DNA of 64,000 nucleotides, from positions 63,831 through 127,830 of IMG/VR virus record IMGVR_UViG_3300020599_000004; one strand, written 5' to 3'. Positions 58,167 to 64,000 of the stretch are shown piece by piece. Under the pieces are notes generated by a model, which saw nothing but the letters and a program-made list of their open reading frames with translations, had not been told where the DNA came from and searched no databases. Made by a program: the position numbers and the translations under genes. Numbering within the stretch: position 1 is the first letter of the stretch; each line of letters starts with the position of its first letter. This DNA comes from a virus.

Positions 58167-58203
58167 CAGGGTCCTTCGGGACCCTGCTTTTTCTTTTCTT
58201 TTT
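58167..58203 (+). terminator. intrinsic terminator
   Basis: CAGGGTCC-ttcg-GGACCCTG then a T-run. Confidence 0.9.
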
Positions 58204-58302: not shown

Positions 58303-60495
58303 ATGAGCAGCAAGTTTGTGAACCACTTCGTCCTTCCGGTTGACAAATACAAGCGTGACCTGAACCTGGTCGGTGCTTATGTCAAGCAGACTGCTACGTT
58401 GCTGCACAAGCAAACTGGCAGGCCTTACGAAGAATGCGAGCAGTTCGTAAAGGACTGCATTCGTCCTGGCGGTCAGTTTGCGCTTAAGGACCCTAAGGTC
58501 TTCAGTCTGGAGCAAGTTACCCCAGGCAACCGTGAGCGTGTGGACCGTACTTTCCTGGGTTATGTGGGAGAAGTGGTCAACACGAACCGTATTCTGTCTC
58601 CCTCCATGGTTTGTTACGAGCGACCAGAGGTCATCAAGTCCACCTCCGCGGCCTTCATTGAAGGGGGGATTAACGAGCGCAAGGTGGCTAAGAAGGAAAT
58701 GTTCATCGCCGGTCAGAAAGGCGATAAGGTCCTGGAGTACATCAAGGACTGTGAGCAGAACGCCAAGAAGATCGCGATCAACTCCGTTTCCGGGATGCAC
58801 GGGTTCTCCGGAAACATTTTGTACGTCAAATCGGGCCACTCCAGCCTGACGTCCATGTGCCGGACTGCGACCGGCTACGGCAATGCCAACAATGAACGCT
58901 TCATTACTGGTTCCAGGCATTACTGGTCCAGTGATATCGTGGAAGCGAATATTGCCACCATTATCACTAACACCGACTATGACCTCCTACAGGAGACGCT
59001 GGACCACTACCAGATCGTCATCCCGTCGGTGGCAGACACCATGGCCTGCATTCGTCGGTCGACGGAACTTTACTGGCGAAATGAAGGCGAAATGAATCGT
59101 CTACAACAGCTGGTTGAGAAACTTACCGATCTGGAACGTGCAGCCTTCGTGTACTCGGGTGATTTGTATCACCTGGCTAAGTTCAATGACACCTTGGTTC
59201 GCGGCTTCATGGACAAGATGATCTGCCCGGCTGATCTGCCCAAGCCCGCAGACCCTGATGCCGTGCTGAAGAGTCTGGACTCGGACCTGACCTCGTTCGT
59301 GAACTACCTCAATGCCCATATCCTCGACACCTATAAGGACGAAGAGGGTAAAGTGCAGAGCAAGACTCACAAGTGGGTCAAAGAGAACGACCCCGAGGGG
59401 TACATGACCCTGGCTGGTACTGCACAGAACCTGCTCAATGTACTGGATGAATACGCGCTGCTAATTCGTGGGCTGTGGGTACCCAAGCACATGCCGCCTA
59501 CAGTAGCCAACATTAAGTCGATCATCCGTCGCACTGCATTGGCTTCGGACACAGACTCGACCATCTTTACCACTCAAGAATGGGTGATGTGGTACACCGG
59601 CAGTTACAAGCGAACCAAGAAGGGTGACGGCATCTGGTACGCCATGACGTATCTGACCACTCAGTGCATCATCCACGTGCTGGCACAGTTCTCGGCTAAC
59701 ATGGGTGTATCTCCGGCTGATCTGCACCGCCTGTCGATGAAGAATGAGTACGCCTTCCCAGTGTTCTCACTGACGGCGCGGGCTAAGCATTATTTCGCCT
59801 ACATGTCTGCCCGTGAAGGTAACGTGTACAGTGAGTACCACTCTGAGATCAAAGGTGTCGCTCTGCGGTCCTCGGCAGTGCCACCTCACGTGATCAAACG
59901 TGCCAAGGAATTCATGCTTGAGATCCTTTCCACAGCGGATAAGGGCGAGCAGTTTGACCTGGACTACGTGTACAACCTGGTTTGGGAGATGGAGCAGGAT
60001 ATCTTCCAATCGATTGAGAAGGGCGAGGGCAAGTACCTCAAGACCGGACAGATCAAGGAAACCTACAAGAACATGGATTCCTCTCCGTACCAGCATTACC
60101 TGCTGTGGGAAGAGGTATTCGCTCCGCGTTATGGCAGCACCCCGGCTCCGCCGTACTCCATCATTAAAGTACCGTTGGAGATTAACAACAAGACCGACAT
60201 GAAGAATTGGCTGGATAGCATCGAGGATCGTGCCCTGGCCAAACGCTTCATGAAGTACCTGGATGCTCGTGGTAAGACCGAGATGTCTACCTTGCTGCTA
60301 CCGATGGCGGTGCTGGGTAGTTCGGGTATGCCTAAGGAGATTCTGCAAGTGGTGAACTCCAGAAAACTTGCGTTTGAGATCCTGGAGTCGTTCTACATGC
60401 TGTTGGAATCCTTGGGCTTGTATCAAGTAGACAGCAACTACATTCGCATGATCAGCGATATCTACCACCCCAATAGCAAGGAAATGACGCAATGA
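58303..60495 (+). CDS. split family-B DNA polymerase, catalytic subunit (phiKZ gp50-like)
   Basis: Motif B NAKKIAINSVSG and motif C LASDTDSTIF; 730 aa. Confidence 0.92.
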   Translation: MSSKFVNHFVLPVDKYKRDLNLVGAYVKQTATLLHKQTGRPYEECEQFVKDCIRPGGQFALKDPKVFSLEQVTPGNRERVDRTFLGYVGEVVNTNRILSPSMVCYERPEVIKSTSAAFIEGGINERKVAKKEMFIAGQKGDKVLEYIKDCEQNAKKIAINSVSGMHGFSGNILYVKSGHSSLTSMCRTATGYGNANNERFITGSRHYWSSDIVEANIATIITNTDYDLLQETLDHYQIVIPSVADTMACIRRSTELYWRNEGEMNRLQQLVEKLTDLERAAFVYSGDLYHLAKFNDTLVRGFMDKMICPADLPKPADPDAVLKSLDSDLTSFVNYLNAHILDTYKDEEGKVQSKTHKWVKENDPEGYMTLAGTAQNLLNVLDEYALLIRGLWVPKHMPPTVANIKSIIRRTALASDTDSTIFTTQEWVMWYTGSYKRTKKGDGIWYAMTYLTTQCIIHVLAQFSANMGVSPADLHRLSMKNEYAFPVFSLTARAKHYFAYMSAREGNVYSEYHSEIKGVALRSSAVPPHVIKRAKEFMLEILSTADKGEQFDLDYVYNLVWEMEQDIFQSIEKGEGKYLKTGQIKETYKNMDSSPYQHYLLWEEVFAPRYGSTPAPPYSIIKVPLEINNKTDMKNWLDSIEDRALAKRFMKYLDARGKTEMSTLLLPMAVLGSSGMPKEILQVVNSRKLAFEILESFYMLLESLGLYQVDSNYIRMISDIYHPNSKEMTQ

Positions 60496-61499
60496 CGCAG
60501 ATCAACGTGTACCTGAATCTGGATGACTATCGCCTTAATACTCCGGACATGGCTGACCGTACGGTGGTGGAGCATCTGGTGCAGGGACAGAGCGCTCCTC
60601 TGTTCATTGGTGCGATCGGGGAACGTAACGTGGGCGGTGCCTTCAGTCAGTACGCCATTTACGGTGAGCAGGGCGAGTTAATACTTGCCCTGGGCTTCCA
60701 GGATGGGAATCCGGCGGCCGTAGGCCAGAACGGGGTTACCATCGAGGCACTCCTGGCGATCTGCACGCATCGCTTGAAGGCTATCCAATTCAAAGGTGCG
60801 TTCACGTGCGCAGAGAACGCCCAGGCCATTGACTACATGCAACGCGCCCTGCTCGCCCTTAAAGGTCGTACCGCACGTCGACTGAATCAGGGTGTTGATG
60901 ACGAGGATATTAGCTGGAGACCTTCTCTTGAGATCACGCGGGAGGACGTCGAGGGTATCCCAGAGGTTCCCGTGAAGTTCAACCAGGCTGATGAATATAA
61001 GTCGTTGGCTCAGCGACTGCGGGAGTATTCCCGTAATCCACACCACATCAACCCGATGTCGGAGGCCTTCCACAGACTGATCGACGAAGCCGCTGCTGCT
61101 CTCAGTGCCGTGGCGACTGAGAGGGAAGGCAAGGTACCCTCCGAACAACCCGCCGGCATTGATGCTATTGTTGAGCCTAATGGCAAAGTCCTTAACCTGA
61201 CGATCAGTGGCGACAAGTACAGCGGACAGTCCACCTTTACAGCAGCATTGATTTCTCTTCTCCAGCAGATCGGCGTAAAGGGTGTGACGGTTAACACCCT
61301 TTCTGATGAGTTCATTTATCTGTTCGGACACATGGACAGCGGTAAACTCACCATGGCTGAGGTAGGCAATACTTTGAATGCACCGACGATCGTCATCAGC
61401 CACGCCGGTGCCGAGGAAGGTGGTGTTCAGTACAAGATCGACCTGAAAACTGGTGACATGACCATGCAGACCCAGGGTAAACTCTTCGACAGGAGCTAA
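60492..61499 (+). CDS. multidomain protein containing a Tad1-like sponge domain
   Basis: Residues about 39-135 match Tad1 motifs (GGAxxxY, FQxG, QxGV, RLKxxQ, FxxxENAxA, RxxxR); ATGA overlap with the polymerase stop. Confidence 0.72.
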   Translation: MTQINVYLNLDDYRLNTPDMADRTVVEHLVQGQSAPLFIGAIGERNVGGAFSQYAIYGEQGELILALGFQDGNPAAVGQNGVTIEALLAICTHRLKAIQFKGAFTCAENAQAIDYMQRALLALKGRTARRLNQGVDDEDISWRPSLEITREDVEGIPEVPVKFNQADEYKSLAQRLREYSRNPHHINPMSEAFHRLIDEAAAALSAVATEREGKVPSEQPAGIDAIVEPNGKVLNLTISGDKYSGQSTFTAALISLLQQIGVKGVTVNTLSDEFIYLFGHMDSGKLTMAEVGNTLNAPTIVISHAGAEEGGVQYKIDLKTGDMTMQTQGKLFDRS

Positions 61500-61507
61500 C
61501 CCAGGAC

Positions 61508-61546
61508 GGCATAAAGGGAGGGCTCAGGCCCTCCCCTCCTTTATGC
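61508..61546. terminator. GGCATAA...TTATGC hairpin between convergent genes
   Basis: GGCATAAAG-GGAGGGC-tcag-GCCCTCC-...-CTTTATGC. Confidence 0.75.
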
Positions 61547-62635
61547 TCGTAGATACGGCCTGATGAAATCGTCAATGAACAACGTGAAGTAGTCACTAAC
61601 GAAACCGGGCAGGTTGCCCGAGAGTGCTTTGTTGCTGTCCAGCTGAATGAGTACACGGTTGATAGCGTTCATCTCATTCAGGCTACGTTCGTTGTCCGTA
61701 GCATCTCTTAGGTGCAGGAGGAAAGCTGTCATGTTTAGACGAGCTGCCACCAGTGCCCAGAGAATCTGGTTGGTAAATGGTGTTTCAGGCAGTCGATGGA
61801 CTTCCAACATGTCAACCCGGCTGAATGCTGGAATGTTCCGCAGGATATCCACCATGGGCAGGCGGTTGGTCTTGAACCGACTTAGTGCCGTGTTGATCAC
61901 GTTATCGAGTTTGTCCTCGATCCTGATCCGCACAAAGGGATACTGCCGATGGCTCTTACCGCAGTGCTCACCCATGCTGCGGCGGGTATAGCGGTTGAAG
62001 ATGGCTACGTCCAGGTGACTGTAGATGGCATTCGTCAAGGGATACTGCATGACGAAGTTCTCAACGTTCTTCACCGATTGCGGGTTGATCAGCTTCTGTT
62101 CGATACGCCACAGTTGGTACTGACATGCCAGCATAGGAACGTTGACCGAGATCACTGCCATCCCTCGCTCTTCAGACTTGGACAGTCCATCCAGGGATTC
62201 GATACCTAGGTCACTGCGGTGGTGAGCCAGGACTCTGACGGGCTGCCAGGTTTTCCAAACTTCCAGTGAATGAGAGAGGTCAAAGTCCGAATCATCGGCA
62301 ATGATGATTTCGAAGGTTTCCTCGCCGTAGAAGACACCCGGGCTAAACGGCTTACCTTTCTGTAAGCTGGAAGTCATGTGGAATGTACCTGTGAATAACG
62401 CAGTACGCTGTTCCACCGCAGCACGATAGCCAATCAGGTTACCGTCAAAGAAAACGTTGATGCTCTCAAGGAGCTTGACCAGCAAGTGATTGCTCCGACA
62501 ATGGGCTGCACCACTCCGCTGATAGGCAATCCAACGATCCACGTCTTTATTCAGAGCGTCTTTGACGTAGCTGAATAGAGGAAAGGTAAAGTTGGATGCG
62601 CGAGAAACTGGCTCGTTATTGAACAGAGTGTACAT
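61541..62635 (-). CDS. conserved jumbo-phage protein upstream of chimallin (phiKZ gp52-like by synteny)
   Basis: 364 aa, divergent from chimallin. Confidence 0.75.
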   Translation of the reverse strand: MYTLFNNEPVSRASNFTFPLFSYVKDALNKDVDRWIAYQRSGAAHCRSNHLLVKLLESINVFFDGNLIGYRAAVEQRTALFTGTFHMTSSLQKGKPFSPGVFYGEETFEIIIADDSDFDLSHSLEVWKTWQPVRVLAHHRSDLGIESLDGLSKSEERGMAVISVNVPMLACQYQLWRIEQKLINPQSVKNVENFVMQYPLTNAIYSHLDVAIFNRYTRRSMGEHCGKSHRQYPFVRIRIEDKLDNVINTALSRFKTNRLPMVDILRNIPAFSRVDMLEVHRLPETPFTNQILWALVAARLNMTAFLLHLRDATDNERSLNEMNAINRVLIQLDSNKALSGNLPGFVSDYFTLFIDDFIRPYLRA

Positions 62636-62871: not shown

Positions 62872-62894
62872 AAGAAAAAATGGTGATACATTAT
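62872..62894 (+). promoter_or_regulatory. putative early promoter of chimallin
   Basis: AAGAAAAAA-tggtga-TACATTAT, 78 nt before the ATG. Confidence 0.65.
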
Positions 62895-62972: not shown

Positions 62973-64000
62973 ATGGGTTTCCATGTCGATGAAACTGAAA
63001 ACACCAACGGCGGTGAAGAAGCTCGTCGCCCGGCTGGTGAAGGCCTGCGCCGCGAAGACGCTCGCGAACCCCGCGAAGAGCGTGGCCAGCTGCGCGGCTC
63101 CCTGCGCACCATGGGTCAGACCCTGGGTCGCGTCCTGGGTCGTAACACCCAGAGCGAAGCGCTGACCAAGACCGTCGCTGCGCTGAAGGACATCTTCGGC
63201 CAAGACGCCACCTCGCCTGATGGCAAGCTGGACCTGGAAAACTTCAGCGTCCTGAGCCTGGACAGCGCCGAATGGCGCACCGGCATCTCGGCCGCCGTCA
63301 TCGCCTACCCGATGACCAGCGAAGGCAAGACCCACGTGTTCTACTACACCCTGGGCATCGAAGCCAGCGCCGCTATCGGCGGCCTGAAGTCCATCGAGCT
63401 GGGCGCCGGTCGTCGCGCCGAAGTACCGGAAGTCGCCGGCGATGCGCTGAACGACCGTCTGCTGGACAAAGTCGAGCAACTGGTCGACGCTGCCGTCCGC
63501 AAGGACTTCAACGGCGAGTTCGTCCTGATCGACGCCGGCATGAACATCATGTTCTCCGAAGTCAACCCGGAGCGCGACGAAGACGCCATCCGTTCCCTGG
63601 CCTTCTACGCCTCCGCGGCGATCTCGACCGTGTCGGTGGAGCTGCTGAAGTACCAGCCGAAGTTCGACCTGGGCTGGCTGGAAGACGACGACACCCTGGA
63701 TGTGGTGCCGGACTTCAACCCCAACCAGATCCTCAACGCCAACGGCCTGCCGCGCCGTACCGACGTGACCCTGACCGTCAACGCCAACATGCGCGAGAAA
63801 GACGGCAACCAGCGTACCGCTCTGACCCAACTGGGCGGTGCCCTGGAGTTCGTCTACTCGCCGCCGAGTGGCAACGGTGGTCTGGGTGGCTTCGGTCGTC
63901 GCAGCCGCGAAGACAGCCGCTACTACTTCCCGCAGTTCACCATCACCACGATGGACACCCTGGGCCGCGTCATCACCCCGGAACTGCTGACCGTGAACCT
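62973..64000 (+). CDS. chmA: chimallin (phage nuclear shell protein), 5' part, truncated at window edge
   Basis: AAGGAG RBS; open to the window end with extreme codon bias. It contains VFYYTLGIEAS...EVPEVAGDALN...RTDVTLTV...YYFPQFTIT, and follows the DNA polymerase / gp52-like block as in nucleus-forming phages. Confidence 0.85.
   Translation, partial: MGFHVDETENTNGGEEARRPAGEGLRREDAREPREERGQLRGSLRTMGQTLGRVLGRNTQSEALTKTVAALKDIFGQDATSPDGKLDLENFSVLSLDSAEWRTGISAAVIAYPMTSEGKTHVFYYTLGIEASAAIGGLKSIELGAGRRAEVPEVAGDALNDRLLDKVEQLVDAAVRKDFNGEFVLIDAGMNIMFSEVNPERDEDAIRSLAFYASAAISTVSVELLKYQPKFDLGWLEDDDTLDVVPDFNPNQILNANGLPRRTDVTLTVNANMREKDGNQRTALTQLGGALEFVYSPPSGNGGLGGFGRRSREDSRYYFPQFTITTMDTLGRVITPELLTVN

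Follow-up and report, generated by a model that had tools for sequence, protein, structure and literature searches.

Among the closest described relatives of the protein reported here are the immune-signal sponges CbTad1 and CmTad1 (PDB 7UAV, 7UAW, 8KBB-8KBH), which are stand-alone hexamers of ~125 amino acids. In CbTad1, residues F82, N92, R109 and R113 form a pocket at the dimer interface for glycocyclic ADP-ribose (gcADPR) or cyclic dinucleotides, and R90 and T97 form a second site for cyclic trinucleotides that also holds the hexamer together (Li et al., 10.1101/2023.11.15.567273). According to a review of jumbo phages, no anti-defence protein other than Tad1 has yet been described in these phages (PMC13282480). 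The known case, gp184 of phage phiKZ (PDB 8Y6V chain I), is an accepted functional Tad1 (PMC12676376, PMC13282480); it is a fusion of 230 amino acids that is held in the capsid by an anchor and enters the host by injection (PMC12676376, PMC11297242). Other sponges are joined to each other, as in Acb4-Tad2 of Pasteurella phage Pm86 and in fusions with Sequestin (PF21825) (PMC12265669). Here, we describe a Tad1 fusion of 335 amino acids, P0001, encoded by an open reading frame (ORF) at 60492..61499 (+) in a stretch of 64,000 nucleotides (the window; positions 63,831 to 127,830 of IMG/VR virus record IMGVR_UViG_3300020599_000004).

Combining homology, fold, a modelled dimer, the residue pattern, synteny and purifying selection, we suggest, with a probability of roughly 55%, that a chimallivirus uses P0001 as an accessory counter-defence protein in which an N-terminal Tad1-family immune-signal sponge is joined to C-terminal modules; any statement on bound ligands, on where and when P0001 acts in the cell or on what the C-terminal modules do is inferred from this framework. 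A preliminary description of the stretch, made from the sequence alone, took Tad1 proteins to be stand-alone, a view that is contradicted by phiKZ gp184 (PMC12676376, PMC11297242) and by the other fusions. Fused Tad1 is already known from gp184, as are sponge-sponge fusions (PMC12265669); P0001 is set apart by (i) the Tad1-first order, (ii) the fusion partners and (iii) the position beside the DNA polymerase gene.

The N-terminal Tad1-family domain

Residues ~22-136 of P0001 (60555..60899, +) are a true Tad1-family domain. In phmmer searches of the PDB, P0001 alone matches phiKZ gp184 (E 1.7e-5), CmTad1 (E 4e-5) and CbTad1 (E 1e-4, covering chain residues 15-117), and it matches phrog_2428 at E 3.6e-18. 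With a family profile of nine sequences the same three proteins are found at E 4e-23, 1.6e-20 and 7e-20, respectively, and the match spans nearly the whole Tad1 chains (residues 16-124 of 125 in CbTad1). Given the E-values of the profile and of phrog_2428, the similarity to Tad1 greatly exceeds what chance would give. The Pfam copy used here did not contain the Tad1/Acb2 hairpin model and gave no match to P0001; relatives of P0001 carry precomputed PF24729 annotations.

The AlphaFold2 model of the full-length protein has an overall predicted local distance difference test score (pLDDT) of 55, with values of 60-85 for residues 30-135. In this model the Tad1 domain consists of a β-sheet, with strands within residues 26-69, followed by two long helices (residues 84-101 and 107-133), i.e. 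the fold of CbTad1 and CmTad1, to which it is homologous over the whole chain. Every one of the 20 best Foldseek hits in the PDB is a Tad1 chain (probability 1.00; template modelling score by target 0.63-0.71). The preliminary description had quoted a Tad1-like stretch over residues 39-135 (60606-60896) and had proposed Foldseek and oligomer modelling as checks; the stretch is present in the ORF, and sequence, fold and modelled dimer all bear out the resemblance. The N-terminal extension was put at 38 residues in that description. Because the nearest homologues align from ~residue 22, it is ~21 residues long (residues 1-21; 60492..60554, +); it is modelled at low confidence, is kept in the orthologue P0002 and is absent from other Tad1 relatives.

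Two copies of residues 1-140, modelled with a purpose-made alignment, form a predicted homodimer with an interface score (interaction prediction score from aligned errors, ipSAE) of 0.90 versus 0.00 for the best of three controls; in the calibration of the tool, 20 of 30 solved pairs and one of 23 single chains attained the mark used for this score. The pLDDT of the partners is at least 88 and the runs share at least 92% of their contacts. The model supports binding between two copies without demonstrating dimerisation.

Residues were mapped between CbTad1 and P0001 by means of the phmmer alignment, and in a check of the numbering all named residues fell on the right letters. The pocket residues F82, N92, R109 and R113 of CbTad1 correspond to I98, N109, R126 and R130 of P0001, and R90 and T97 of the trinucleotide site correspond to A107 and D114. 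Thus, three of the four pocket residues are retained in P0001, and across the family alignment N109 and R126 are invariant and R130 is invariant or nearly so. R126 and R130 are the two C-terminal arginines that had been singled out from the sequence. In the modelled homodimer, I98, N109 and R126 are among the residues that contact the other copy. At the positions of the pocket the accepted sponge phiKZ gp184 has Y, N, R and R, and at those of the trinucleotide site it has E and N, i.e. the same pattern as P0001. From these comparisons we infer that the dimer pocket is retained in P0001, and the trinucleotide site and the canonical hexamer have probably been lost.

The C-terminal fusion partners

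The Tad1 domain makes up the first third of P0001. It is followed by an acidic linker (residues 137-165; 60900..60986, +) with 8 D/E and 3 K/R and a pLDDT below 50, a mobile helical module that we refer to as the NPHH module (residues 166-212; 60987..61127, +), a second linker modelled at low confidence (residues 213-231; 61128..61184, +), and an α/β domain of 104 residues (residues 232-335; 61185..61496, +), which we refer to as the orphan domain.

The NPHH module carries the motif RLxEYxxNPHHINPxSxxF in P0001. Over the 45 residues of the module, which has the general motif RLxEYxxNPHH[IV][ND]PxSxxF, 12 positions are invariant among 12 sequences. An exhaustive search identified it in 67 other proteins at 42-72% identity (mostly 55-70%); it is mostly N-terminal in phage proteins of 50-290 residues, some of which also contain DUF551, and a 42-kb phage contig encodes one of these proteins in its early region. 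No family for the module was found in Pfam, PHROGs or the PDB, and no match was found in named phages. A joint MAFFT alignment with the NPHH-module proteins was discarded, as it misaligned these proteins onto the Tad1 domain. The module is absent from P0002, the middle part of which is unrelated to that of P0001, and the inter-domain region is therefore swappable. Judged from sequence, the NPHH module is an uncharacterised mobile mini-domain. The helical middle domain of the preliminary description is partly recovered here: the two strings on which it was based are found at residues 172-179 and 196-204, and they belong to this mobile module and not to a conserved part of the fusion. A recent transfer of the module was considered on the basis of base composition and set aside: the G+C content is 0.51-0.57 in all parts of the gene versus 0.55 in the window, and gives no signal.

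The orphan domain is 53% identical to the C-terminus of P0002. Like P-loop nucleoside triphosphatases (NTPases), both proteins have a predicted strand, the sequence G-x4-G-[KQ]-S, a helix and, later, a hydrophobic strand that ends in D in the sister phage and in H in P0001. The degenerate P-loop string ISGDKYSGQST noted from the sequence is present at residues 238-248 (61203-61235), with its G-x4-G-Q-S core, the Walker-A-like loop GDKYSGQS, at 61209..61232 (+). The loop departs from the Walker A consensus GxxxxGK[ST], to which the corresponding GDNHSGKS of P0002 conforms; likewise, the IVISH strand (61389..61403, +) departs from the Walker B consensus hhhhD/E, to which the aligned IVITD of P0002 conforms. 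Unlike P-loop NTPases, the domain has just ~100 residues, is without a significant profile or fold match, and in P0001 lacks the catalytic lysine and aspartate. The orphan domain may plausibly go back to a P-loop protein and have lost its catalytic activity in this phage.

P0002 was the sole relative of whole P0001 or of its C-terminal domain recovered by a word-indexed search and by a HMMER search with residues 137-335 against 1.8 billion representatives, and pattern scans of viral and metagenome contigs and a tblastn search of 50,697 phage records for the C-terminal domain found nothing beyond it. A profile search of the PDB with the domain gave nothing significant (PilT, E 1.4). In a VIA-align wide search with the model of the domain, the best Z was 3.1 and no P-loop fold was found; structure searches with this model are uninformative because its pLDDT is 49. 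A local resemblance, GxxGVT[IV], and a BLAST match in a small database (E 0.003) had raised the idea that the domain is a second, diverged Tad1 repeat; this idea was rejected (hhalign probability 0.3%, E 0.18).

Other Tad1 relatives are built differently. Like P0001, gp184 is encoded by a jumbo chimallivirus, has its Tad1 domain inside a longer protein and has lost the equivalents of R90 and T97. It differs in its order: an N-terminal part that anchors the protein in the capsid, and that the head protease removes, comes first, and Tad1 follows at the C-terminus. P0001 carries Tad1 at its N-terminal end, has unrelated extra parts and is encoded next to the polymerase gene. Tad1 is also C-terminal in gp131 of Burkholderia phage FLC9 (338 residues; L005 2874-3890) and in a PS119XW protein (193 residues). 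FLC9 gp131 and a relative of 332 residues, P0003, have N-terminal extensions of ~200 residues of no known family, and Tad1 is fused to a Sequestin-type PF21825 domain in P0004, a relative of 240 residues. None of the N-terminal extensions of FLC9 gp131, the PS119XW protein, P0003 and P0004 resembles the C-terminal half of P0001. P0001 shares with the sponge fusions of PMC12265669 that a sponge is joined to a small module; in those fusions the partners are recognised sponge families, whereas the partners in P0001 are the uncharacterised 45-residue module and the orphan P-loop-like domain. An N-terminal Tad1 domain with a P-loop-like tail appears to be undescribed.

The gene, the polymerase junction and the genomic neighbourhood

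The P0001 gene follows a gene for a divergent family B DNA polymerase of 730 residues (58303..60495, +; PF20286, E 5.6e-239; phrog_2927). As proposed from the sequence, the P0001 start overlaps the polymerase stop, the ATG and the TGA forming ATGA at 60492-60495. A Shine-Dalgarno-like AAGGAA (60478..60483, +) lies 8 nucleotides before the ATG, and an 8-bp tandem repeat, ATGACGCA-ATGACGCA (= ATGACGCAATGACGCA), spans the junction at 60484..60499 (+), and for this reason the polymerase ends in MTQ-stop and P0001 begins with MTQ. The identical junction with its tandem repeat is found in the sole sister phage identified (locus L001 5995-6010), and the repeat may be a footprint of the joining of the P0001 gene to the polymerase gene. 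P0001 is probably translationally coupled to, and co-expressed with, the DNA polymerase.

The ORF is not an assembly artefact, because (i) the identical protein is encoded on five contigs from at least three samples, the longest contig being of 276,567 bp, (ii) a syntenic orthologue, P0002 (380 residues), follows the SH3DP and polymerase genes on a 161-kb contig, and (iii) the two sequences differ as expected for constrained coding sequences. Specifically, the proportions of non-synonymous and synonymous differences (pN and pS) between P0001 and P0002 are 0.195 and 0.85 in the N-terminal part and 0.324 and 0.739 in the C-terminal domain; synonymous sites are saturated (pS 0.74-0.85) and non-synonymous differences amount to 0.20-0.32. 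The resulting pN/pS of 0.23-0.44 across both terminal domains argues that both ends of the protein are coding and constrained. An antisense ORF of 241 residues lies fully within the P0001 gene (60678-61403, -); nothing speaks in favour of its being a gene.

Downstream of P0001, a GC-rich, terminator-like hairpin with an 8-bp stem of which 7 are GC pairs (61516..61535) lies between convergent genes. Together with a second GC-rich terminator-like hairpin at 58167-58186 it brackets the polymerase and P0001 genes, an arrangement that suggests a two-gene unit, with the proviso that the count of such hairpins in the region is not above that in shuffled controls. The convergent gene encodes a protein of 364 residues (61541..62635, -; phrog_3938) and is by place and strand the counterpart of PhiPA3 gene 051, whose annotation gives a similarity to phiKZ gp052. 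It is followed by the gene for chimallin, the shell protein of the phage nucleus (62973..64000, +; cut by the window end), identified by phrog_4795 (E 5.4e-12) and, for the same gene on the 276-kb contig, by PF25677. The chimallin start on that contig maps to 62973; the longest ORF there begins at 62880. Because chimallin is encoded downstream of P0001, the phage is nucleus-forming, i.e. a chimallivirus, as the preliminary description had supposed.

The nearest named relative is Pseudomonas phage pPa_SNUABM_DT01, with a polymerase identity of 54.6%. The interval between the polymerase gene and the gp52-like gene (window 60496-61540, compared with L007 7281-8190 and L008 7131-9223) contains P0001 here, one unrelated ORF of 194 residues in DT01 and three ORFs in PhiPA3. 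The C-terminal half of P0001 shows no similarity to the ORFs in this slot of DT01 or PhiPA3. The interval is a variable cargo slot in chimalliviruses, and the unrelated cargo in DT01 and PhiPA3 fits the expectation for an accessory gene.

Proposed function and alternative explanations

In the model that we favor, sponge activity of P0001 is likely. The N-terminal domain (residues 22-136) would most likely dimerise and generate a pocket at the interface, lined by N109, R126 and R130, the equivalent of which holds gcADPR or a cyclic dinucleotide in CbTad1; the cyclic-trinucleotide site and the canonical hexamer contacts are probably absent. The flexible acidic linker would connect this domain to the swappable 45-residue helical module and the conserved 104-residue orphan domain. 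The latter seems to have arisen from the core of a P-loop NTPase (strand, loop and helix), and has lost the Walker lysine and aspartate in this phage, so that it could at most bind a ligand and not hydrolyse it. P0001 would be made together with the DNA polymerase, probably by translational coupling, and would probably be cytoplasmic, where the signals and effectors of Thoeris and of the cyclic-oligonucleotide-based antiphage signalling system (CBASS) are.

Several observations weigh against this model. Solved Tad1 dimers exist, and the score of the modelled homodimer may reflect memory of, or likeness to, these structures rather than binding by P0001. The aromatic pocket residue F82 is replaced by I98 (also isoleucine in P0002; gp184 has a tyrosine), both residues of the trinucleotide site are changed (R90 to A107 and T97 to D114), and of the eight hexamer contacts of CmTad1 that were compared (R88, T95, K96, Q98, E99, M102, W103 and K106) seven differ in P0001, the equivalent of Q98 being the one that is identical. 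As substitutions in the two sites occur in just 12% and 6% of homologues (Li et al., 10.1101/2023.11.15.567273), P0001 is by these positions a Tad1 of a minority type. For the C-terminal domains of both P0001 and P0002, all Pfam matches are sub-threshold and confined to the P-loop segment (RNA_helicase 0.064, AAA_29 0.074, GTP_EFTU 0.12 and NPHP3_N 0.15, i.e. E 0.06-0.15); the Atlas leads are P-loop clusters with scores of 0.75-0.88, which are often reached by chance; the AlphaFold2 model of the domain is weak, with a pLDDT of 45-60 within the full-length protein and 48.8 alone; and the P-loop interpretation leans on the canonical motifs of one orthologue.

A first alternative is that P0001 is a two-headed anti-signalling protein that neutralises two classes of signal, in which the C-terminal domain is itself a nucleotide-binding module, either a second sponge or, in the sister phage, an enzyme (NTPase or kinase) that works on immune signals. 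Sponges are often fused to sponges, and a new sponge family was found in that way (PMC12265669); the relative P0004 is itself a Sequestin-Tad1 fusion. Moreover, the Walker-A-like motif is flanked by a predicted strand and a predicted helix, canonical GxxxxGKS and hhhhD motifs occur in the orthologue, every weak Pfam or Atlas lead is to a P-loop family, and the domain is under purifying selection. However, the domain is without a significant family or structure match, this phage has degenerate versions of the two Walker motifs, ~100 residues are short for a P-loop NTPase, and just two sequences of the domain exist. On balance we regard this function as unlikely. A more elaborate version, in which a new minimal P-loop-derived module was recruited to counter-defence, is active in the sister phage and is a binding-only pseudo-enzyme here, with the Tad1 dimer trapping one class of signal and the tail binding or processing another, would be more doubtful still. 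If true, this version would define a new anti-signalling domain family by 'guilt by fusion'. The second nucleotide-binding module of the preliminary description is not supported in the form given there: one orthologue has canonical motifs, those of P0001 are degenerate, and no family or fold match was found. Overall that description is partly supported, with solid evidence for Tad1 homology and for a fusion; its second nucleotide-binding module stays a hypothesis drawn from a single orthologous sequence.

Alternatively, the Tad1 fold may have been repurposed. The domain would then have ceased to sequester immune signals and would offer the C-terminal modules a platform for dimerisation or ligand sensing, or would act as an accessory factor associated with the polymerase. 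The substitutions of F82, R90, T97 and most hexamer contacts are in line with such a change, as is the coupling to the polymerase gene in both phages. Yet, N109, R126 and R130 are kept throughout, or nearly throughout, the family alignment, the validated phiKZ Tad1 has the same substitutions, and other chimalliviruses have different genes in the slot, so that P0001 does not belong to the core replisome; we consider this explanation improbable. P0001 might also be a packaged and injected sponge like gp184 with its order reversed: the C-terminal modules would anchor the protein in the virion, and Tad1 would enter the cell along with the DNA, possibly once the head protease has cut it free. This recalls the phiKZ protein, a minor capsid protein the Tad1 part of which is freed by that protease and injected (PMC12676376, PMC11297242) and which is the best PDB match of P0001, and an S-L-E site lies in the linker (residues 145-147); however, [SAG]-x-E motifs number six in P0001, about the composition-based estimate and no evidence for processing, the C-terminal half is dissimilar to the N-terminal extensions of the gp184-type proteins of FLC9 and PS119XW, and the gene lies in a replication block coupled to the polymerase and not among head genes, and we regard this reading, too, as unlikely.

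We thus favor the model of P0001 as an accessory sponge. In this model, P0001 has the same sponge domain as gp184 in another architecture: N-terminal, polymerase-coupled and combined with swappable modules. If the tail is inert, P0001 would simply be one more Tad1 homologue. Given that the fusion partners of sponges have already yielded Sequestin, the orphan C-terminal domain and the NPHH module are cheap, testable candidates for novel anti-defence functions. Together with the other Tad1 fusions, P0001 suggests that building composite proteins around Tad1 is routine among nucleus-forming phages.

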